This document shows positions 24,734 through 57,921 of a stretch of 64,000 bases of DNA, piece by piece. The notes below the pieces were generated by a model. It searched no databases, was not told the origin of the DNA, and worked only from the letters and a program-made list of their open reading frames with translations. Source of the DNA: Escherichia phage vB_Eco_F31; sequence record OP870147.1. One strand, 5' to 3'. Each line of letters opens with the position of its first letter. Position 1 is the stretch's first letter. The position numbers and the translations under genes are program-made.

Positions 24734-25264
24734 TTATTTCAAAGTTGGGATAATAGAATCGAGATAAGCTTTAAGAGCAACTGTTTCATCTTTGTCTAAT
24801 GTAATGATATGTTGACGAAGGTCATCAATTTGGCGAATAACTACGACATCACCGTCTTCATAAGAAGGATTAACGCCTAGGACTGTTGTATAGTCAGGGC
24901 GGTCCTGATTTGTAATAAAAGCATTACGGCATTTAGCCCATTGAAGTTTGGCCTTTTTGGCAGTTTCAGATTCTATGAATTCTTTCACCTTAGTGACGAA
25001 TGTTTTCCAATTATTGATAGAAAGGCATTCATCTTCTGTTTCGATATTAACCCCACTATAAAGACCGTGATAAAAACGAACTTGAAGGTCTTCATCAATG
25101 TTAATTACAGATGCATGGCCGGGCGGATTGAGTTTCAAAATCTTGTCCAGTTCCATAGGAAGAATAGTAACAGCATCATCTTCTTGTGTCAGAACGTAAG
25201 CATAACCACGTTTTTCGATACATAAATCGCCAAACAACTCGGTTGTTTCAATTACAGTTTTCAT
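24734..25264 (-). CDS. hypothetical protein
   Basis: Start moved to ATG 25264 (MKTVIETTEL...). Confidence 0.55.
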   Translation of the reverse strand: MKTVIETTELFGDLCIEKRGYAYVLTQEDDAVTILPMELDKILKLNPPGHASVINIDEDLQVRFYHGLYSGVNIETEDECLSINNWKTFVTKVKEFIESETAKKAKLQWAKCRNAFITNQDRPDYTTVLGVNPSYEDGDVVVIRQIDDLRQHIITLDKDETVALKAYLDSIIPTLK

Positions 25265-25265
25265 A

Positions 25266-25445
25266 TTATTCACCAATTAAAGTTTCAACAAAATTCACCA
25301 AATCATTCAGACAAGCATCAACCTGATTTTCATAAAAGTCTTCGTTATCATTTACTGCATGATAAGCTACATCATTCAAATCTGAATCGGCTTCACGTAA
25401 GTTACGGATAAGTTCCATCAATTTATTAGCTTGTTCACGGGTCAT
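25266..25445 (-). CDS. hypothetical small acidic protein (59 aa)
   Basis: ATG 25445 overlaps stop of an upstream ~36-aa ORF (ATGA coupling); below track cutoff. Confidence 0.35.
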   Translation of the reverse strand: MTREQANKLMELIRNLREADSDLNDVAYHAVNDNEDFYENQVDACLNDLVNFVETLIGE

Positions 25446-25580
25446 TTTACCATACTCGTTTCAATAAGATTCACTATGCCGTTTACCATGTTATAAGTAA
25501 ACATCGGATAATTGTATTGTACTACAACATAAGCGATAAGCAAAAGTTTCATTTTGTTCTCCGTTTGTTTTGATAGGACT

Positions 25581-25609
25581 ACTATAACATAGTCCTACCA
25601 AGATGTAAA
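25581..25609 (-). promoter_or_regulatory. early promoter / stem-loop cassette
   Basis: TTTACA-N17-TATAGT; TAGGACT/AGTCCTA brackets the -10. Confidence 0.6.
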
Positions 25610-25843
25610 CTACCGATTGTGTTTTAAATGTTGATAAAGTTCTTCAACTTGTTTTGGGTCCAAAACAATTAAGTCATTTTCTTGACGAAGATAAATCCAT
25701 CCCTTATCCCCAGGGCCATTTTTACAAAACATCACCACCGTATCATCATCTTCAGCGCTTTCAGGTAAAAGTTCAAGTACACCGTCTTCAGATTTTCCAG
25801 TATAATCGTAAAGCATAATATCCTCACATAATCTCGTTAACAT
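25610..25843 (-). CDS. hypothetical protein
   Basis: 77-aa acidic ORF. Confidence 0.5.
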   Translation of the reverse strand: MLTRLCEDIMLYDYTGKSEDGVLELLPESAEDDDTVVMFCKNGPGDKGWIYLRQENDLIVLDPKQVEELYQHLKHNR

Positions 25844-26003
25844 ACATTTGCAATTCGGTGTGGGCTTCGGCCATCTTTTTCATAGCTCTGTTAATGTCGA
25901 TGTCTCCATCTTCGCAACCATGAGCATTTTCCCAATCAGATACCGCATTAGCGTACTCTTCAATCAAAAACATTAACTTAGAAATTTTTTCTTTACGTGT
26001 CAT
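25824..26003 (-). CDS. hypothetical protein (rI.-1 position)
   Basis: Start moved to ATG 26003 (MTRKEKISKL...), SD GAGGAG. Confidence 0.5.
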   Translation of the reverse strand: MTRKEKISKLMFLIEEYANAVSDWENAHGCEDGDIDINRAMKKMAEAHTELQMYVNEIM

Positions 26004-26030
26004 AACGTTCTCCTCTAGTAAGTAAGGACT

Positions 26031-26058
26031 ACTATAACACAACCTGAGGAGAAGTAAA
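26031..26058 (-). promoter_or_regulatory. early promoter inside SD-sequestering inverted repeat
   Basis: TTTACT-N16-TATAGT; repeat CTCCTC (26010..26015) / GAGGAG (26046..26051) pairs the SD of ATG 26003. Confidence 0.55.
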
Positions 26059-26070
26059 CTGATAGATGCC

Positions 26071-26099
26071 AAAAAAAGCCCCAACCATAAGGAAGGGGC
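26071..26099 (-). terminator. rho-independent terminator (GCCCC...GGGGC cassette) after rI
   Basis: Minus strand GCCCCTTCC-TTAT-GGTTGGGGC followed by T7; 8 nt after stop at 26107. Confidence 0.7.
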
Positions 26100-26106
26100 T
26101 AGTAAA

Positions 26107-26409
26107 TTAGATAGATGTAGGCTCTAATTTTATTTTCATGAACTCGGCAAATTGTCTGGCAGTTTTTATGCCTTGTTCATGACATTCAAATGCATCATCA
26201 CAGGGGCTATTTTTGTAATGCTTTGCCATATACTTATAGAATTTTTCAGAATTCTCGACATTTTGAATTTCAAACAAAGTATATACATTTTTAATCCCTG
26301 ATTCCATAAAGTTATCAAAATATGGGTCGATATATGCAGTGCCAACAATAGGAGTTGTTACTGCAAAAAACCCCAGCATCACCATGACGGCTATCGCTCT
26401 TAAGGCCAT
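26107..26409 (-). CDS. rI: lysis-inhibition regulator RI (antiholin)
   Basis: 100 aa, N-terminal signal-anchor; MALRAIAVMVMLGF...DPYFDNFMESGI resembles T4 RI from memory; adjacent to tk. Confidence 0.85.
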   Translation of the reverse strand: MALRAIAVMVMLGFFAVTTPIVGTAYIDPYFDNFMESGIKNVYTLFEIQNVENSEKFYKYMAKHYKNSPCDDAFECHEQGIKTARQFAEFMKIKLEPTSI

Positions 26410-26421
26410 ATAGGCCTCCTG

Positions 26422-26634
26422 TTAATTTTGGCCAGTATTTATTTTTCGCCTTTGGACGGCCTTAACATCTGCGAGGTATTTTTCCAGCTTGCGCTTGCGT
26501 GTATAATCAGCTTTAGAACCAGTTTGACGGATATCCTCGTTTAAATGAGAAATAGAATGTCCTAATTCTCTTCGGATTTCATCCAATTGGGTTACAGTAA
26601 GATTACGAAGTTGTCTTTCGTTTAATTGCTGCAT
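26422..26634 (-). CDS. hypothetical protein (rI.1 position)
   Basis: 70-aa basic ORF. Confidence 0.55.
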
Positions 26635-26661
26635 ATATACCTCTTGGTTAGATATTAGTAT

Positions 26662-27243
26662 TTATAACAACCCTGTCAAATCGTTCCAATGCTTCCGGCA
26701 TAATGACACATATCTATCGGTATCACCAATTTCAATTTGACTGCCATCTGTAATTGGAAGTCCGTCTTCCGTGACTCTAGCTACCATTGTGGCCTTTTTA
26801 CCACAATGACAGACACCTTTAAGTTCAACAAGCTTATCGGCAATAGCCATTAATGCTTGAGAACCTTCAAATAGATTACCTTTAAAATCTGTTCGTAGTC
26901 CATATGCCATTACCGGCACATTGTATACGTCAACAATACGACTAAGTTGATACACCTTTTCAGTAGTTAAGAACTGAGCTTCATCAACAAATACACAGTG
27001 AATATCCTTTTGTGCTGCAGCCCATTTATAGAATTCAAAGATATCCATGTCTTTTGTAATTATATTGGCGTCCTGTCGAATACCAATACGAGAGACTATT
27101 TCACCTTTTGAATCGCGAGTATCAATAGCCGGTTTAAGAACTAATACACCCATGCCACGTTCTTTATAGTTATGTGCGGCAGTAAGTAATGAAGCAGACT
27201 TACCAGCGTTCATAGCGGCATAGGTAAAAATTAAACTAGCCAT
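26662..27243 (-). CDS. tk: thymidine kinase
   Basis: Walker A AAMNAGKS; C-terminal zinc site CHCGKK...CRKH. Confidence 0.95.
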   Translation of the reverse strand: MASLIFTYAAMNAGKSASLLTAAHNYKERGMGVLVLKPAIDTRDSKGEIVSRIGIRQDANIITKDMDIFEFYKWAAAQKDIHCVFVDEAQFLTTEKVYQLSRIVDVYNVPVMAYGLRTDFKGNLFEGSQALMAIADKLVELKGVCHCGKKATMVARVTEDGLPITDGSQIEIGDTDRYVSLCRKHWNDLTGLL

Positions 27244-27252
27244 AAGAGTCCC

Positions 27253-27435
27253 TTATAGTGAATTCACGTAGTCAATGAGTTCTTGTTCTTTCCTGTCAAA
27301 TGATTCCAACAATGCTTGATATTCTTCGTCCGTCAAAGGAGCATATTCATCATACGCATTGGTGGCTGCTTGCTCATCCAATAGGTCATGGATAAGTTCA
27401 AACAGTTTAGTTTTCTCTTCTTTAGTCAATTTCAT
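27253..27435 (-). CDS. hypothetical protein
   Basis: 60-aa acidic ORF. Confidence 0.45.
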   Translation of the reverse strand: MKLTKEEKTKLFELIHDLLDEQAATNAYDEYAPLTDEEYQALLESFDRKEQELIDYVNSL

Positions 27436-27659
27436 TTAGGTTCACCTTCTTTAACGAAATCTGGGTAAGGGTAAAATCCTGAGTAAAACCCTTCACCTTT
27501 ATGATTGCTACAACCTTTGTTCGAACAGTAACACCAATAATCAAAATCACAAGCCATTTCGTCATTGCATAAAGCAAAAACTACAGGCCATTCGCATTTT
27601 TCGCATTTAGCACCTGTAAGAATTTTTGTTTGACTCATAGCCATGTCACCTTTAAGCAA
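27432..27659 (-). CDS. hypothetical Cys-rich protein
   Basis: Several Cys pairs (CEKCEW, CSNKGC). Confidence 0.5.
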   Translation of the reverse strand: MLKGDMAMSQTKILTGAKCEKCEWPVVFALCNDEMACDFDYWCYCSNKGCSNHKGEGFYSGFYPYPDFVKEGEPK

Positions 27660-29657: not shown

Positions 29658-29685
29658 TTTGATTTCTCCTCTAGTTGACAGGTCT

Positions 29686-29713
29686 ATAGTAACACAACTA
29701 GAGGAGAAGTAAA
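29686..29713 (-). promoter_or_regulatory. early promoter inside 13-bp SD-sequestering hairpin (regB)
   Basis: TTTACT-N16-TACTAT; perfect repeat TCTCCTCTAGTTG (29665..29677) / CAACTAGAGGAGA (29695..29707); one arm contains regB SD. Confidence 0.6.
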
Positions 29714-29718
29714 CTACT

Positions 29719-32471: not shown

Positions 32472-32535
32472 TTTTTGTTTCCTTGTTTGTTTTGATAGAG
32501 TAATTATACCATATTAATACTTAAGCGTAAACAAT

Positions 32536-32796
32536 TTAAGCTTTACCGCCAGAAATAATTCCGAAGTTGTTAAAATCGTATCCAATATCGTCAACATCCA
32601 CTTTAGGACTTGCTACAACATAAGCAATTTCACTACGTTTTGCATAGGTGTTGATTTCTTTACCATCGCCACCTAAGAAAGAATACCCATTACGTTTTAA
32701 TGAGCCAAAGTCTTCGGCATCACCAATGAAAGCTTTAACTTTAAATTTAGGACATTTGGCATCTGCTTCAATGATAAATTCTTGATACATTTTCAT
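32536..32796 (-). CDS. internal protein (capsid-targeted)
   Basis: CTS MKMYQEFIIE. Confidence 0.7.
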   Translation of the reverse strand: MKMYQEFIIEADAKCPKFKVKAFIGDAEDFGSLKRNGYSFLGGDGKEINTYAKRSEIAYVVASPKVDVDDIGYDFNNFGIISGGKA

Positions 32797-35935: not shown

Positions 35936-36241
35936 TTATTTTCCTCGACATTCTTTAATGAAATTTTCTAGATTGGTAGATTCAATAGCTTTTTTACGAG
36001 CTTCTGCATGTTCTTCTTCAGACAATTTACATTTATAATTAACCCAGACATTATGGTCGAAACTAGTCGTGGCATATAATAACAATGCTCCAACGAATAG
36101 CAAAAACGGCGATAAGAATACAAAACCAGGAACACCATCCATATCGTAAGCCTTTTGTAATACTGCAACAGAAAGAGCTGCGTAAAAAGGTGATGCAAAT
36201 ATTGTTAAAAGACCAATTCGGTTGGTTTCGCCTAATTTCAT
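35936..36241 (-). CDS. hypothetical membrane protein, C-terminal ENFIKECR module
   Basis: Two hydrophobic helices; C-terminus LENFIKECRGK. Confidence 0.5.
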   Translation of the reverse strand: MKLGETNRIGLLTIFASPFYAALSVAVLQKAYDMDGVPGFVFLSPFLLFVGALLLYATTSFDHNVWVNYKCKLSEEEHAEARKKAIESTNLENFIKECRGK

Positions 36242-36269
36242 AATATTCTCCTCATGTTTTAATAGGACT

Positions 36270-36298
36270 ACTATAATATAGCCCTATCAGTTTGTACA
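36270..36298 (-). promoter_or_regulatory. early promoter / stem-loop cassette
   Basis: TGTACA-N17-TATAGT; TAGGACT/AGCCCTA brackets the -10. Confidence 0.55.
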
Positions 36299-36299
36299 C

Positions 36300-36500
36300 T
36301 TATTTTGACATTTCTTCGATGTCACGACGATACCCATCACGAACTTCACGAAGAGCTTCAAGGCCACACATAGGCTCGATACCAGTAATGTGAACTTGAT
36401 TAATCTGATACTCTACATCTTCTAACTGAGCGAAAACATAACGACGTTCTGCTGCACAACCAGGTTTAGCTTTACCGAAACGTTTATTCAAAGTAGTCAT
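36300..36500 (-). CDS. hypothetical protein
   Basis: Start placed at ATG 36500 (MTTLNKRF...). Confidence 0.5.
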   Translation of the reverse strand: MTTLNKRFGKAKPGCAAERRYVFAQLEDVEYQINQVHITGIEPMCGLEALREVRDGYRRDIEEMSK

Positions 36501-37565: not shown

Positions 37566-37817
37566 TTAAATTTCACGACATGCGATATTATATTCATCCC
37601 AGAGGTCATCATGTGAAGCCTCTACCAATGGAACGATTGTACCGTTTATGTCTTCATTATAAGGGCAAATTGTACAGTGCGCATCTTCGAATCGGATGCC
37701 TTTGTGTTCAGATTTTTTATAACGCATATCGAATATCTTTGCAAACTTTTCACGAGTAATGGTTTTACCAACCACTTTGGTTCCGATACTTTCGTAATAA
37801 ATCATTGTGGACTCCAT
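37566..37817 (-). CDS. hypothetical protein
   Basis: 83-aa ORF. Confidence 0.5.
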   Translation of the reverse strand: MESTMIYYESIGTKVVGKTITREKFAKIFDMRYKKSEHKGIRFEDAHCTICPYNEDINGTIVPLVEASHDDLWDEYNIACREI

Positions 37818-37833
37818 TTGTTTTGATAGGACT

Positions 37834-37862
37834 ACTATAACATAGCCCTATCTTGTTGTAAA
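37834..37862 (-). promoter_or_regulatory. early promoter / stem-loop cassette
   Basis: TTTACA-N17-TATAGT; GATAGGACT/AGCCCTATC brackets the -10. Confidence 0.6.
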
Positions 37863-37867
37863 CTGTT

Positions 37868-40676: not shown

Positions 40677-40904
40677 TTATTTTTTAATCAAATTGACATA
40701 AAACTTGGCGTCTTCAGGGTGCATGCCTTCGCAGTATTCTTCAACCATGAACTTCTTAACAGCTTCATAAGGACCACTCAGATTAAGCTCAGTTGTCCAG
40801 AACTTGGAATCTTGGACTGAATCGATACGAACTTCAGGGTGGCGGTTGCGAATAACTTCTTCGGTGTATTCATAATCAACGACATCAATACTAACTTTAG
40901 CCAT
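40677..40904 (-). CDS. hypothetical protein
   Basis: 75-aa ORF. Confidence 0.5.
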   Translation of the reverse strand: MAKVSIDVVDYEYTEEVIRNRHPEVRIDSVQDSKFWTTELNLSGPYEAVKKFMVEEYCEGMHPEDAKFYVNLIKK

Positions 40905-40931
40905 TTTGTTTTCCTCTTGATTTGATGTGAT

Positions 40932-40960
40932 TACTATAACATAAACTTACTTAGATGTAA
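40932..40960 (-). promoter_or_regulatory. early promoter
   Basis: TTTACA-N17-TATAGT upstream of ATG 40904. Confidence 0.55.
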
Positions 40961-41145
40961 ATTATTTCAACGTCACCTTTAGCTGCTTTATAACCTTCAG
41001 CCCAAGATACAACAGAGTTTTTATCTGAGGATTCAAATTCAGGCATTGGACTTTCACCAATATTCACACAGTATGTTTCTTCATTTTCATCGAACCAAAT
41101 AATTAAAGTAGTCATTTTGTTTACTCCTCTGTTGTTGATAAACCC

Positions 41146-41174
41146 ATAGTATCACCATCCTTGGTGCTTGTACA
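41146..41174 (-). promoter_or_regulatory. early promoter / stem-loop cassette
   Basis: TGTACA-N17-TACTAT with hairpin CACCA-TCCT-TGGTG in spacer (diverged copy of 18749 type). Confidence 0.5.
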
Positions 41175-41183
41175 TCATTATTT

Positions 41184-41489
41184 TTAATTTTTCCAACTTA
41201 ACAACTTGTAGTGTCCTTCATTCATACGTGGTTTATCCCAAGAAATACTAATATATGATTCACCGTCAATAGAAGTCGCCGGGTTTTTCTCTACCGTAAG
41301 ACCTTCACTTTCCAGCCATTCAATAGTATTTGAGCATAAATCAGAAGAACACCTCATCGGGAACCGGCAAGATTTTTCACCTTTAGCCGCAGTGTTATAC
41401 ATCTTTTCTAAAATACGCTTTTGCACGTTTTTAAAAATAGTTTCAGCAGATTCTTCAGATTTTTTATTCAGTTCAGTGTAAAGACTCAT
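41184..41489 (-). CDS. hypothetical protein
   Basis: 101-aa ORF. Confidence 0.5.
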   Translation of the reverse strand: MSLYTELNKKSEESAETIFKNVQKRILEKMYNTAAKGEKSCRFPMRCSSDLCSNTIEWLESEGLTVEKNPATSIDGESYISISWDKPRMNEGHYKLLSWKN

Positions 41490-41517
41490 AATATTCTCCT
41501 CTGTGGTTGATAAGTCT

Positions 41518-41545
41518 ATAGTATCATGTCCTTAGAAGAAGTAAA
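41518..41545 (-). promoter_or_regulatory. early promoter
   Basis: TTTACT-N16-TACTAT upstream of ATG 41489. Confidence 0.5.
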
Positions 41546-41579
41546 CATCTTTATGAAATATTTTTATGCCCTAGATGCC

Positions 41580-41606
41580 AAAAAGCCCCAACCATAAGGA
41601 AGGGGC
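41580..41606 (-). terminator. rho-independent terminator (GCCCC...GGGGC cassette)
   Basis: Same hairpin as 26071 copy followed by T5; 6 nt after stop at 41613. Confidence 0.7.
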
Positions 41607-41612
41607 ATTCTA

Positions 41613-42077
41613 TTATTTAATTTGTTTAGCAGACCAGATACGGTCTTTAATAAGTTTTTGGATATCTTCAACATACTCAAGGCTATGAGCGTGAGGATTA
41701 TCTTTGAAGCTATGTGCTCGTGCCAGTTTCTGTCCTTCTGTTTTGATTACTAAAAGCTCTTTAAGAATTGCTTCATACTTAGAAATAATTCCTTTGGCGA
41801 TATTTTTTTCTTGAGCTGCTTTAGGGTCCGCTTTTGGCGCAGGTGCTTTACCTGTAGCTTTCTGGAACAATTCACCTGATGCAGCTAGGCTTTTAAAAAC
41901 TCGGCTAACAGTATTAGCATTAGTAAAACCTTCGGCTTTAAAATCTCTAATAAAACGGAAACGTTCTTCATCAGAGGCGTCTTTGTAAGAATATTTACCT
42001 GCTTGAATTGCTGCAATCGCAGCGGCTTTTACATCTGAACTAGATTGTTCAGTCAAAAATTCAGCGTATGATTTCAT
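41613..42077 (-). CDS. internal protein (capsid-targeted; ipI-like position)
   Basis: CTS MKSYAEFLTE; terminator downstream. Confidence 0.7.
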   Translation of the reverse strand: MKSYAEFLTEQSSSDVKAAAIAAIQAGKYSYKDASDEERFRFIRDFKAEGFTNANTVSRVFKSLAASGELFQKATGKAPAPKADPKAAQEKNIAKGIISKYEAILKELLVIKTEGQKLARAHSFKDNPHAHSLEYVEDIQKLIKDRIWSAKQIK

Positions 42078-42122
42078 GTTGCTTTTCCTAAATTAATTAA
42101 CTTATCTATTTATTATTATGCC

Positions 42123-42149
42123 AAAAAGCCCCAACCTTTCGGAAGGGGC
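42123..42149 (-). terminator. rho-independent terminator (GCCCC...GGGGC cassette, GAAA loop)
   Basis: Minus strand GCCCCTTCC-GAAA-GGTTGGGGC followed by T5; closes the tRNA/RNA locus. Confidence 0.7.
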
Positions 42150-42201
42150 TATGCCTTGCGGCAACCTTGTCGGGGTTCCACCTGCTAAGGCAAGTGTTTG
42201 T

Positions 42202-42293
42202 ACGAAACGCCGGGATTTGAACCCGGTTATTAAGCAGTTGACGCTACTCAATATTTTTAAAAGGCCATATCTCGACCATATCCGAACGTTCCG
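42202..42293 (-). ncRNA. tRNA-like element (acceptor stem plus canonical T-arm, no canonical D or anticodon arm)
   Basis: Minus strand 5' CGGAACG pairs with CGTTTCG 3'; T-arm CCGGG-TTCAAAT-CCCGG at 42210..42226; no CCA encoded. Confidence 0.3.
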
Positions 42294-42637
42294 TCAAAAA
42301 CGCTACTCGGCTTACGGCAAAGATATTTCCTCGAATCGATAATTCGGTGCGCCGTTTCTGCTGTGATGTAAGGGGATATTAAAAAATCGTAAAGATTTAT
42401 TAAGACCAGTCCTTACTCAGGGAACATCAGTCCGACGACTTACCGGTAGCGACCCGGCTTCTTATTTTGGCATATCATCAATTTGCTCTCGACGCCGACG
42501 CCATAGATTAATAGCTTCATTAACACATTCGGCGTTTGGTATATGACGGCAATAATATAATGATTCGCGTTTCTGGAACCGATGTTGCAACGGGATTTCG
42601 TTTAAAAGGTCTTTACGGTCAAAGTATTCAAAACTAG

Positions 42638-42805
42638 TTAACCCGGAACGGTTTTAAGAAACTTCCAATGTCCGAATTCATTTTTAAAATAAACATAATC
42701 AGCATGTTGATATAATGAATTAATTAACCTATCGGAAATAACTGTTTCACGTTCGTTAAAATAAAACGTTAAATCATGAACTACCAGATACACATTGCCT
42801 TTCAT
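42638..42805 (-). CDS. hypothetical protein
   Basis: Start placed at ATG 42805 (MKGNVYLVVHDL...), SD GAGGAAAA, just downstream of tRNA-Arg. Confidence 0.45.
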   Translation of the reverse strand: MKGNVYLVVHDLTFYFNERETVISDRLINSLYQHADYVYFKNEFGHWKFLKTVPG

Positions 42806-42823
42806 ATTTTCCTCACTTGAAGT

Positions 42824-42900
<77 letters not shown>

Positions 42901-42903
42901 GAT

Positions 42904-42978
42904 TGGTGACCCTGGCTGGTTTCGATCCAGCTACCTATCAGTTATGAGCTGACAGCTCTCCCATTGAGCTACAGGGCC
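42904..42978 (-). tRNA. tRNA with CAU anticodon (Met, or Ile2 if lysidine-modified)
   Basis: 75 nt with CCA; acceptor GGCCCTG/CAGGGTC, anticodon loop CTCATAA, T-arm GCTGG/CCAGC; 3 nt from tRNA-Arg. Confidence 0.85.
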
Positions 42979-43040
42979 TTAATAACTTTCTATTATGAAA
43001 GGCACTTTAGAGCACCTTTGGTAATAGAGGGTATGAATTA

Positions 43041-43067
43041 ATAATAACACATAATTCTTAAAGCAAA
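43041..43067 (-). promoter_or_regulatory. MotA-dependent middle promoter for the tRNA cluster
   Basis: Perfect MotA box TTTGCTTTA + 12 nt + TATTAT, ~63 nt upstream of tRNA 5' end. Confidence 0.55.
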
Positions 43068-43573
43068 TCAATCATTTTAACAGTCGGCAAAACGATTTCT
43101 TCTTCAATATAAGCAAATTCAACACATTCAACTACACGCAAGAAATCATAATCATAATATTCAGAAGCATGGCCAAGAATATCAATGAGACCTTCTGATA
43201 CTAAATATCCATTCTCATGGAACAGGTCAAATATACGTGATTCATCTTCTTCAGATTTATTACCGAGGTCGACTTCAATATCAAAGACCTTTTTAATGAA
43301 TTCTGGATAAAGCTGGTCTGAGAACAGTCCTTCAACCAAGTATTCATAGATTAAAAGCGAGCAATCACTGAATGGTGTATTACCACAGTAACGTTCAGCT
43401 TTAGTGCTAGAATGACGACTCTTAAATTTCTTCAAGAGATATTTAAACTGTTGGAGCTCATGCTCTTCTACACCAAATAATGTTTTGGTTTTATAGTTAT
43501 CGCCGTCATTTTCCCAAGTAGTGACATCAATTACGTAACCTTTAGGAATTGTACTGCCTAAACAAATATTCAT
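43058..43573 (-). CDS. hypothetical protein
   Basis: 171-aa acidic ORF. Confidence 0.55.
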   Translation of the reverse strand: MNICLGSTIPKGYVIDVTTWENDGDNYKTKTLFGVEEHELQQFKYLLKKFKSRHSSTKAERYCGNTPFSDCSLLIYEYLVEGLFSDQLYPEFIKKVFDIEVDLGNKSEEDESRIFDLFHENGYLVSEGLIDILGHASEYYDYDFLRVVECVEFAYIEEEIVLPTVKMIDLL

Positions 43574-56400: not shown

Positions 56401-56550
56401 TCGGAACGACGTAAACTGATGAGCCCATTATTTGATGCGTCCGGAACAACATTCTCTAGATTTAGAGATTTGGTTGAACAACGGTTAATCGATAATGTAG
56501 GAAATCCAAGAGACCCCGTGAATCCACCGCAGGTTAAATTAGATGAATGA
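53452..56550 (+). CDS. 7: baseplate wedge initiator gp7
   Basis: 1032 aa, same length as T4 gp7. Confidence 0.85.
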   Translation: MTVKAPAVTSLRISKLSANQVQIRWDDVGANFYYFVEIAETKTADGEIIPPASYRWINLGYTPNSNWFENSLDPLTSYIIRVSTAAEGFERSDWVYTEIFESFQTNAYTFQHMIEMQLANTFIREKFTNNNMAYVDFNNDTIMAALMNESFQFSPAYADISSIKNFIIGENEYHEIQGSIQQVCHDINRVYLMESEGILYLFERYQPVVKVSNDKGQTWKSVKLFNDRVGYPVSRTVYYQTDYTTYVLGYDKLFYGRKSTDVRWSADDVRFSSQDITFAKIGDQLNLGYDVEIFGNYASLPANVSRIAEAIVCNDDYVYVAARDKVRFIKTSNAPIDSDPLSPTYSERLFEQETFNITGNPKAVCYKMDSVGGKIFALIIGEVVNLNDDPRTTPIVDSADKGVYVLDHDAGTFKRVFGNTEEERRRIEPGYTSMSTDGVELSISSSNFKFLESDIVDDPKTQIKYGLIGAVKYEYPREWLADKHYHMMAFISTEDSQWESFTPQPMEYYAEPFFSYSRKSGTRCWINNSDKAVVIYSDLLYTKVIENHPLSSSDREVHEYWKDGDCTIVMPNVDFTGFKKYASGMIFYKSSGEIISYYDFSYRVRDNVSIIWKPTNIFLTASLQNQEKDTTWTPVEENGITDPDLRPLLTTMMPESYLLDNTNFEAFCEAYIQYLSDGYGTHYNNLLNLIKNQYPREEHAWEYLWSEIYKRNIYLNAEKRDLVSRFFESRSYDFYSTKGTEASYKFLFKVLYNEDVEIEIESSSGTEYDIIIESDSLTEDLVGQTIYTATGRCNVTYIERSYSKGKLQWTVTIHNLLGRLIQGQEVKAERLPGFEGEIVRGIKGKELSQNNIDYINRGRAYYVMKIKSKLPSSRWKSDVLRFVHPVGFGFIAITLLTMFINTGLTLKHVETIINKYKNYKWDSGLPTKYADRVAKLDPQGNVEFDPITGKAIYEIGPMAGQDYPLPEDYNAENNNSIFQGQLPSERRKLMSPLFDASGTTFSRFRDLVEQRLIDNVGNPRDPVNPPQVKLDE

Positions 56551-57577
56551 TTCAAGTGTTATCTATCGTGCAATAGTTACATCAAAATTTAGAACAGAAA
56601 AAATGCTGAATTTTTATAATTCAGTTGGGGATGGAGATGATAAGAACTCCATTTATATTACGTTCGGACGTTCAGAGCCTTGGGCGTCAAATGAAAATGA
56701 GGTGGGCTTCGCCCCACCTTATCCTACAGATTCTGTTCTTGGTGTTACTGATATGTGGACCCATATGATGGGTACCGTTAAAGTTTTACCTTCAATGTTA
56801 GATTCTGTTATTCCTAGGCGTGATTGGGGAGATGTGCGATATCCGGACCCTTACACGTTTAGAATTAACGATATAGTCGCGTGTAATACTGCTCCGTACA
56901 ACGCGACAGAAGTTGGAGCTGGTTGGTTAATTTACCGTTGTTTAGACGTCCCTGACGTAGGGCTCTGTTCAATAGAATCTTTAGATAATAAAGATGAATG
57001 TCTTAAATTGGGTGGTAAATGGACTCCGTCTGTTCGTTCTATGTCTCCTCCTGAAGGCAGAGGCGATGCTAATGGGGTTATCGAAACCGGTGATGGATAT
57101 ATTTGGGAATATCTTTATGAGATTCCTGCCGATGTGTCAATTAACCGTTGCACTAATGAATACCTTGTAGTTCCATGGCCGGAAGAAATTAAAGAAGACC
57201 CAACCCGTTGGGGATATGAAAATAACTTAACTTGGCAACAAGATGACTATGGCTTGATTTACCGTGTTAAAGCCAATACGATGCGGTTTAAAGCATATTT
57301 TGATTCGGTTTATTTCCCTGAGGCAGCTTTGCCTGGTAACAAGGGTTTTAGACAGATATCAATTATCGCAAACCCGTTAGAAGCTAAGAAAAATCCAAAT
57401 GACCCTAATGTTAAAGCAGAAAAGGATTATTACGACCCTAGAGACTTGCAACGTCATTCTGGTGAAATGATTTATATGGAAAACCGACCACCTGTTATTA
57501 TGGCAATGGACCAAACAGAAGAAATTAACATTTTGTTTATGTTTTCCCAACCCGTTGGGGATATGAAAATAACTTAA
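56543..57577 (+). CDS. 8: baseplate wedge protein gp8 with aberrant 10-residue C-terminal tail
   Basis: 344 aa; frame runs from duplication copy 1 into copy 2 out of frame, adding SQPVGDMKIT after ...INILFMF. Confidence 0.85.
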   Translation: MNDSSVIYRAIVTSKFRTEKMLNFYNSVGDGDDKNSIYITFGRSEPWASNENEVGFAPPYPTDSVLGVTDMWTHMMGTVKVLPSMLDSVIPRRDWGDVRYPDPYTFRINDIVACNTAPYNATEVGAGWLIYRCLDVPDVGLCSIESLDNKDECLKLGGKWTPSVRSMSPPEGRGDANGVIETGDGYIWEYLYEIPADVSINRCTNEYLVVPWPEEIKEDPTRWGYENNLTWQQDDYGLIYRVKANTMRFKAYFDSVYFPEAALPGNKGFRQISIIANPLEAKKNPNDPNVKAEKDYYDPRDLQRHSGEMIYMENRPPVIMAMDQTEEINILFMFSQPVGDMKIT

Positions 57578-57892
57578 CTTGGCAACAAGATGACTATGGC
57601 TTGATTTACCGTGTTAAAGCCAATACGATGCGGTTTAAAGCATATTTTGATTCGGTTTATTTCCCTGAGGCAGCTTTGCCTGGTAACAAGGGTTTTAGAC
57701 AGATATCAATTATCGCAAACCCGTTAGAAGCTAAGAAAAATCCAAATGACCCTAATGTTAAAGCAGAAAAGGATTATTACGACCCTAGAGACTTGCAACG
57801 TCATTCTGGTGAAATGATTTATATGGAAAACCGACCACCTGTTATTATGGCAATGGACCAAACAGAAGAAATTAACATTTTGTTTATGTTTT
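57199..57892 (+). repeat. perfect tandem direct duplication, 2 x 347 bp
   Basis: 57199..57545 and 57546..57892 are identical on inspection; flanking bases differ so boundaries are exact. Confidence 0.9.
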
Positions 57893-57897: not shown

Positions 57898-57921
57898 GGG
57901 AGCCTTCGGGCTCCCATTTTT
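57898..57921 (+). terminator. rho-independent terminator after gene 8 region
   Basis: GGGAGCC-TTCG-GGCTCCC followed by ATTTTTG. Confidence 0.75.

Follow-up and report, generated by a model that had tools for sequence, protein, structure and literature searches.

Gene context and structure of three minus-strand hairpins

The window analysed here, i.e., the whole 64,000-nt stretch of Escherichia phage vB_Eco_F31 (OP870147.1), has a G+C content of 37.5% and comes from a T4-like phage (Tevenvirinae, Mosigvirus-like). Nucleotides 25000-27500 matched 229 phage records, the best being Mosigvirus (Tevenvirinae) phages of Escherichia and Shigella, 98-99% identical and with the gene order tk - rI.1 - rI. 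Nucleotides 40800-43200 matched the T-even tRNA - rnaD - rnaC - e.x region in 855 records, just 52 of which cover at least 80% of the query, thus identifying this region as variable. Every gene around the three sites described below is oriented on the minus strand (Table 1).

Table 1. Features of the rI and rnaC regions of the window (positions in nt from the first letter of the window)
Feature	Position	Strand	Remarks
59-aa ORF (DUF7438 / phrog_2758)	25824..26003	-	SD GAGGAG at 26010-26015
Putative T4-type early promoter, family D6	26031..26058	-	TTTACT, 16-nt spacer, (TGt)TATAGT; read from the sequence
GGCATCTA flank past the U-run	26063..26070	-	Common to copy 2 and to the T4/Lutter rnaC terminator flank (GGYATCTA)
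Putative terminator copy 1 (site 1)	26071..26099	-	Hairpin 26099-26078 (GCCCCUUCC-UUAU-GGUUGGGGC) and U7 at 26077-26071; 7 nt past the rI stop
rI lysis-inhibition gene	26107..26409	-	Transcript that copy 1 would terminate
101-aa ORF (phrog_18312)	41184..41489	-	Downstream of the 41518-41545 promoter; SD GAGGAG at 41496-41501
Putative T4-type early promoter, family D6	41518..41545	-	TTTACT, 16-nt spacer, (TGa)TACTAT; AT-rich stretch upstream; read from the sequence
Putative terminator copy 2 (site 2)	41580..41606	-	Hairpin 41606-41585 (UUAU loop) and U5; 6 nt past the ORF154 stop; maps to the same T4 hairpin as copy 3
ORF154 (phrog_2280)	41613..42077	-	Cargo between copies 3 and 2; N-terminus MKSYAEFLTE
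AATAAATA box	42107..42114	-	7/8 match to the T4 late-promoter box TATAAATA
Putative terminator copy 3 (site 3)	42123..42149	-	Hairpin 42149-42128 (GAAA loop) and U5; orthologous to the T4 rnaC terminator
rnaC (species 1 RNA) homolog	42201..42339	-	Approximate; transferred by alignment from the T4T annotation
rnaD homolog	~42346-42464	-	Approximate
~60-nt early-promoter block copies	25550-25612, 32472-32534, 36239-36301, 37803-37865, 40902-40964	-	

At site 1, the U7 run is followed by GGCATCTATCAG, TTTACT-N16-(TGt)TATAGT, the SD GAGGAG and the ATG of the 59-aa DUF7438 ORF. T4 has the additional gene rI.-1 at the rI position, together with a terminator of unrelated sequence (AGUCUCC-UUCG-GGAGACU) and, past it, a similar early promoter; comparison of T4 mobD.5 with the 59-aa ORF revealed no similarity. 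At site 2, the order past U5 is GGCATCTAGGGC, an AT-rich stretch, TTTACT-N16-(TGa)TACTAT, the SD GAGGAG and the ATG of the 101-aa ORF. At site 3, U5 is followed by GGCAT, AATAAATA, the SD AGGAA and the ATG of ORF154. Several relatives carry a perfect T4 late-promoter box, TATAAATA, where the window has AATAAATA. Upstream of copy 3, in the 3' trailer of rnaC, a small UGCC-GCAA-GGCA hairpin (42152-42163, minus strand) directly precedes the terminator-like element; it is kept in T4 and in most relatives and is replaced in TU01 and NHEP10. The tRNA cluster (42824-42978, minus strand) contains tRNA-Arg(UCU) and tRNA-Met(CAU) alone, versus eight tRNAs in T4, and the homing-endonuclease gene segB is absent between the tRNAs and rnaD. 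Rfam at gathering thresholds retrieved the two tRNAs only; none of its families represents rnaC, rnaD or the hairpin.

On the minus strand, the common element reads GCCCC UU CC, a tetraloop (UUAU, UUAU and GAAA at sites 1, 2 and 3, respectively), GG UU GGGGC, then U7, U5 and U5, respectively, and GGCAU. In this form, GCCCCUUCC-loop-GGUUGGGGC with U5-7 and GGCAU, it occurs in three minus-strand copies and nowhere else in the window, site 1 sharing both the hairpin and the GGCAUCUA flank. Searches with GCCCCAACCNNNNGGAAGGGGC, either exact or admitting up to 2 mismatches, returned only 26078-26099, 41585-41606 and 42128-42149, with 0.00 occurrences in shuffled sequences. The 27-nt minus-strand form including the T-run, with 3 mismatches allowed, added no further copy in the whole window, and a repeat search independently grouped the three sites as one family (D7). 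The threefold occurrence claimed in the preliminary description was thus borne out. Plus-strand ORFs opening at the ATG of ATGCCAAAAAGCCCC (MPKSPN...) are short, run antisense to ORF154 and rnaC, respectively, and were discarded as spurious.

In the ViennaRNA fold of each copy, a 5-bp outer stem (GCCCC/GGGGC) and a 2-bp inner stem (CC/GG) are separated by a 2x2 internal loop (U.U/U.U), and a tetraloop caps the inner stem. Free energies were -13.7 to -13.9 kcal/mol for the hairpin alone, and z-scores against shuffles were -2.2 to -3.0 when flanks were included. These folds, together with the U7/U5/U5 runs, agree with the minus-strand hairpin carrying two U.U mismatches and followed by a U-run that had been described. 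Two details of that description needed correction. First, the motif assigned to 26071..26099 was said to begin with gcc: the hairpin and the U-run do lie within these limits, but the gcc sits 3 nt outside (26068-26070). Second, the spacing of 6-8 nt from a stop codon or RNA end holds for rI (7 nt) and ORF154 (6 nt) but not for site 3, which starts about 51 nt past the mature rnaC 3' end, as judged by T4 homology.

Elsewhere in the window, an exact 347-bp tandem duplication (57199-57545 and 57546-57892, plus strand) affects the 3' part of a 344-aa ORF (56543-57577); the repeat length is not divisible by 3, so that the reading frame changes where the two units meet. This duplication could be real or an assembly artefact. 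A UUCG-loop terminator lies past it, at about 57898-57916.

Predicted termination and the tandem U.U mismatch

The three copies look like Rho-independent terminators. Each consists of a G+C-rich hairpin, with 5 + 2 bp that are all G-C around the 2x2 U.U loop, and of a U-run that begins with the first base past the stem (U7 at site 1, U5 at the other two), and each stands on the coding strand at the end of a transcription unit. A terminator scan admitting no internal mismatches missed all three, and a fold-based scan of the whole window recovered them, ranking them with the strongest combinations of hairpin and T-run; all other convincing candidates differ from them in stem sequence. Such hairpins are annotated as (predicted) terminators in related phage records. 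The earlier reading as terminators is therefore upheld by structure, U-run, coding strand, position at gene or RNA ends, orthology of site 3 with the T4 rnaC terminator (see below) and annotation in relatives. A literature search retrieved no Term-seq or 3'-end mapping study of T4 or T4-like phages. A bidirectional terminator was also considered and rejected, as the plus strand has no T-run past the hairpin at any of the three sites.

Covariation was evaluated over 12 different variants of the hairpin, taken from orthologous as well as paralogous sites. Pairing was possible in 90.7% of the cells. By pair, four were invariant, three varied on one side with pairing kept, and one had changed on both sides in a compensatory manner (GGCCC...GGGCC, in a single relative). 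The covariation score was reached by 38 of 500 shuffles. The resulting support is weak and of low power because the stem is almost invariant.

On this reading, copy 3 would end the tRNA-rnaD-rnaC transcription unit, copy 2 would end a short unit made of the late-promoter-like box and ORF154, and copy 1 would end the tk-rI unit. The early promoter, SD and start codon found past copies 1 and 2 suggest a stop-and-restart at each of them, incoming transcription being stopped and then reinitiated from the putative early promoter 20-40 nt on.

The tandem U.U mismatch makes these hairpins about 4.5 kcal/mol less stable than their fully paired Tequatrovirus counterparts (-18.2 to -18.5 kcal/mol), so that the copies may be leaky attenuators and partial read-through is plausible. 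In an alternative explanation, the hairpins would be mainly partial attenuators, or 3' RNA-stabilising or processing structures, the weakened stem (-13.7 kcal/mol) leaking a set fraction of early/middle transcription into ORF154 and the downstream genes. The U-run of just 5 nt at sites 2 and 3 is consistent with this possibility, and so is the lack of an early promoter for ORF154, which has the 7/8 late box only and for which read-through at site 3 would therefore be the sole early expression route. On the other hand, the base pairs abutting the U-run matter most for intrinsic termination, and here five G-C pairs abut it directly; moreover, -13.7 kcal/mol is well inside the range of working terminators. 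We consider a mainly attenuating or RNA-stabilising role unlikely; it overlaps with the terminator reading and is compatible with it. In favour of attenuation, 'terminator/attenuator' is the term of Arbiol et al. themselves for the stem-loops of PeSL cassettes (PMC2839356).

At the orthologous rnaC site, Tequatrovirus genomes have GA, AG or AA, each pairing with the 3' UU, whereas Mosigvirus genomes have UU. The comparison was based on annotated phage records, which were used in place of an rnaC-anchored IMG/VR scan that gave 7 loci; TH55 and Q7622 were left out, the anchor being absent. In these records the tandem U.U is a state of the Mosigvirus lineage and the Tequatrovirus copies are fully paired. 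The copies within one genome therefore resemble each other.

Origin of the copies and the 543-bp cassette

By alignment, site 3 is orthologous to the terminator that follows rnaC in T4. This phage has just one such hairpin there, GCCCCGACCGAAAGGTTGGGGC-T5-GGTATCTAAGCC; its e.8 early promoter lies about 110 nt further on, and ORF154 is absent from T4. In pairwise blastn, nt 42460-42118 of the window aligned with T4 rnaD-rnaC (93.6% identity over 343 nt) through the hairpin, ending just past GGYAT, and the hairpin is found at +59 from the tRNA-like T-arm motif of rnaC in T4, Lutter, REP3, RB33, Lv5cm and the window alike. Besides position and flanks, T4 and site 3 have 20 of 22 hairpin bases, the GAAA loop, U5 and GGYAT in common. 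They differ in the inner pairs, GA in T4 forming a fully paired 9-bp stem (-18.2 kcal/mol) and UU here giving the 2x2 U.U loop (-13.9 kcal/mol), and in copy number, since the window has two more copies, one 543 bp downstream and one past rI.

The second copy maps to the same T4 hairpin. The alignment with T4 stops at GGYAT and restarts at the hairpin of copy 2 (nt 41606-41572), with similarity to the e.8 promoter region resuming beyond, and the intervening 543-bp unit (late box, ORF154, hairpin, U5 and GGCAT) is therefore an indel with respect to T4. At its ends, copies 3 and 2 form 32-nt direct repeats made of the hairpin, U5 and GGCAT. Phage Lutter (Tequatrovirus) shows the same layout with an ORF 77% identical to ORF154, and interval 325-360 of the compared T4 piece is present at both ends of its insert; in its record, the two hairpins carry terminator annotations, with a late promoter placed between the first of them and the ORF. 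What comes after the rnaC hairpin varies among relatives, with at least five alternatives: the T4 e.8 promoter region; ORF154/157, sometimes then a second internal-protein-like gene; a 184-aa ORF; a 126-aa ORF beginning MYTVNEFL...; and an early promoter with a 141-aa ORF. Homologs of ORF154 were found in 511 phage records, once per record in all, while the rnaC region matched 855.

Taken together, it is probable that the three elements are homologous Rho-independent terminators for minus-strand transcription, derived by duplication or ectopic recombination from the ancestral post-rnaC terminator that T4 also has, with copies 1 and 2 being PeSL-like and copies 3 and 2 the footprint of cassette gain or loss. 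In this scheme the 543-bp cassette would have been gained or lost through recombination inside the terminator repeats. The earlier proposal of cassette reuse gains support from the tandem U.U and GGCAT at all three sites, from GGCATCTA at sites 1 and 2, and from sites 2 and 3 mapping to one T4 terminator. Indeed, neither the U.U and GGCAT of the three sites nor the GGCATCTA of sites 1 and 2 is required for hairpin function, and a common origin is favoured by their sharing.

Part of the resemblance could nevertheless be convergence, as the same hairpin core also turns up, with unrelated flanks, in numerous viral contigs of other kinds. When IMG/VR was scanned for the exact pattern GCCCC-NN-CC-loop-GG-NN-GGGGC-U5 with the inner pairs left free, at least 120 stretches matched, and duplicates were removed by flank. 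Among the matches listed, UU/UU was the commonest inner-pair state of this hairpin shape (25/120 flank-distinct matches), followed by tandem G.U (21), each Watson-Crick combination reaching 12 at most and the AA/UU state not being found among the 120, with the caution that the sample is approximately unbiased and its make-up was reconstructed, so that these fractions are approximate. The UU/UU hairpins listed stood beside about 20 unrelated flank contexts, including those of non-T4-like contigs. Such a distribution would be expected if the three sites had independently reached one favoured terminator hairpin, with neither duplication nor recombination. However, the sites have in common bases that lie outside any structural need, i.e., GGCAT at all three, GGCATCTA at sites 1 and 2 and a TAG before sites 1 and 3; sites 2 and 3 align, flanks included, to a single T4 terminator; and the UU state is lineage-specific and common to all copies within a genome. 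In addition, the loops swap as a block between near-identical relatives, which likewise speaks against independent origins. Convergence as the whole explanation is thus very unlikely in our view.

In the first IMG/VR pattern scan, GAAA and its complement UUUC dominated among the loops. Some viral-contig copies with an upstream A-run matched the pattern on both strands, which suggests bidirectional terminators. Several T4-like genomes of other genera have two or three hairpin copies, KP15 having two. That the tandem U.U/U.U loop is a selected feature and not the product of drift appears quite unlikely; if it were selected, it could tune termination to set leakiness, or could be recognised as a motif by an RNA-binding protein or nuclease, of phage or host origin, common to many enterobacterial phages.

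The loop exchange just mentioned was seen at the rI site. Among relatives 95-98% identical around this site, UUAU and GAAA replace each other, i.e., three substitutions within 4 nt. At the site orthologous to 26078-26099, one relative (L041) has a GAAA loop where others (L066 and L001) and the window have UUAU, with the surrounding 100 nt almost identical. This pattern suggests conversion between copies, with the GAAA-loop copy of the rnaC site as the probable donor.

The dispersed copies and their position at indel junctions might also point to a small mobile DNA unit (MITE- or REP-like), or to a site for a recombinase or homing endonuclease, the hairpin being incidental; T4 does have the homing-endonuclease gene segB in the neighbouring tRNA cluster. 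Yet the common unit is just 32-40 nt long, no target-site duplication was seen at the three sites, segB is missing from the corresponding interval of the window, and ORF154 is the only gene encoded by the cassette. Neither terminal inverted repeats with target-site duplications nor copies away from gene ends, as would characterise a MITE- or REP-like element, were found; at every copy, strand and position fit a gene or RNA end. A mobile-unit origin is accordingly regarded as extremely unlikely. The hairpin also had no match in 5,426 complete E. coli genomes, which counts against a mobile unit as well and led to the rejection of a host origin.

The cargo between copies 3 and 2 had no Pfam match, and PHROG 2280 has no assigned function. 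The N-terminus of ORF154, MKSYAEFLTE, can be aligned with MKTYQEFIAE of T4 IPII/IPIII, with M1, K2, Y4, F7 and E10 invariant (5 of 10 aligned positions). According to PMC3012670, internal proteins have a capsid-targeting sequence in common. In the T4 internal proteins, which are packaged in the head and cleaved by the prohead protease, this sequence is N-terminal, spans about 10 residues and has L/I-x-E at its end. By this resemblance, ORF154 is a candidate internal-protein-like gene with a capsid-targeting-type N-terminus, whose product may be packaged. MKxYxEF[IL]xE starts were found in five minus-strand ORFs of the window (33556-33275, one near 32796, 32471-32157, 32131-31802 and ORF154), whose 5' ends make up DNA repeat family D3; the GCCCC hairpin flanks ORF154 alone.

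Comparison with PeSL cassettes and internal-protein loci

Although the elements carry little weight beyond annotation, they provide a clean case of a short terminator serving as a homology patch for the gain, loss or swap of accessory genes in T4-type phages. What is exchanged here is a gene for a candidate injected internal protein; anti-restriction factors such as IPI* belong to this class. The rnaC terminator may offer a predictable junction for finding new internal-protein-like cargo genes in T-even genomes. When Mosigvirus genomes are annotated, the three sites can serve to delimit transcription units. Only the recurring U.U mismatch in tandem is a point that could repay experiment.

The closest published parallel is the PeSL arrangement (Arbiol et al. 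2010, PMC2839356; Comeau et al. 2014, PMC4122927). Experiments in RB49/phi1 demonstrated that this arrangement terminates and promotes transcription and recombines into mini-circles (PMC2839356), and later work extended it to the T4/PST pair, referring explicitly to the internal-protein locus (PMC4122927). Sites 1 and 2 resemble the cassettes so described, in that a stem-loop precedes a putative early promoter (TTTACW ... TAYWAT-like), an SD and a start codon. At site 1 the promoter reads TTTACT-N16-TATAGT with its -35 box 20 nt past the stem; at site 2 it reads TTTACT-N16-TACTAT, 40 nt past the stem. The SD and start codon are GAGGAG and ATG at the first two sites; site 3 has AGGAA and ATG, and there a late-promoter-like box takes the place of the early promoter. 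The surroundings are hyperplastic as well, with an ORF154 cassette absent in T4, at least five modules past the rnaC hairpin and an rI junction unlike that of T4, and, as in the published PeSL cassettes, the elements flank a gene that is present or absent between relatives. Finally, the pair of repeats encloses a unit of about 0.5 kb, the size given for PeSL mini-circles in the same sources.

Four differences have to be considered. First, the stem found here is unlike the T4/PST (AGNA-loop-TCNT) and RB49 (Gn-loop-Cn) forms that have been published. Second, site 3 has no early promoter and is therefore not a full PeSL. Third, the homology delimiting the indel is the terminator itself, whereas the published crossovers were mapped to the promoter/SD part. 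Fourth, the promoter spacer is 16 nt instead of the 17 of the T4/PST type (TTTACW-N17-TAYWAT). An obligate terminator plus promoter unit was likewise rejected for the window, since the D6 promoter family also occurs without a hairpin at 29680-29715, and terminator and promoter are therefore separable modules. A further block of about 60 nt, comprising early promoter, 5' leader, SD and ATG, is repeated at least five times with 65-84% identity (families D1, D2, D4-D6, D10 and D11; Table 1) and constitutes a second layer of regulatory-cassette reuse in the region.

The second parallel is with the polymorphic T-even internal-protein loci (Repoila et al. 1994, cited through PMC4122927 and PMC3012670), which, as presented there, likewise combine a variable gene with a conserved CTS-type N-terminus in a shuffled locus with conserved regulatory bounds. 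They differ in position, since ORF154, a candidate for packaging and cleavage, adjoins rnaC and does not lie at the classical ipI or ipII/ipIII positions. Reuse of this kind is natural duplication and recombination in a hyperplastic region of T4 type, in line with the published PeSL picture, and is not unusual: the three copies are an ordinary example of the known reuse of small regulatory cassettes in T4-like phages, in which two of the copies bracket a swappable gene.
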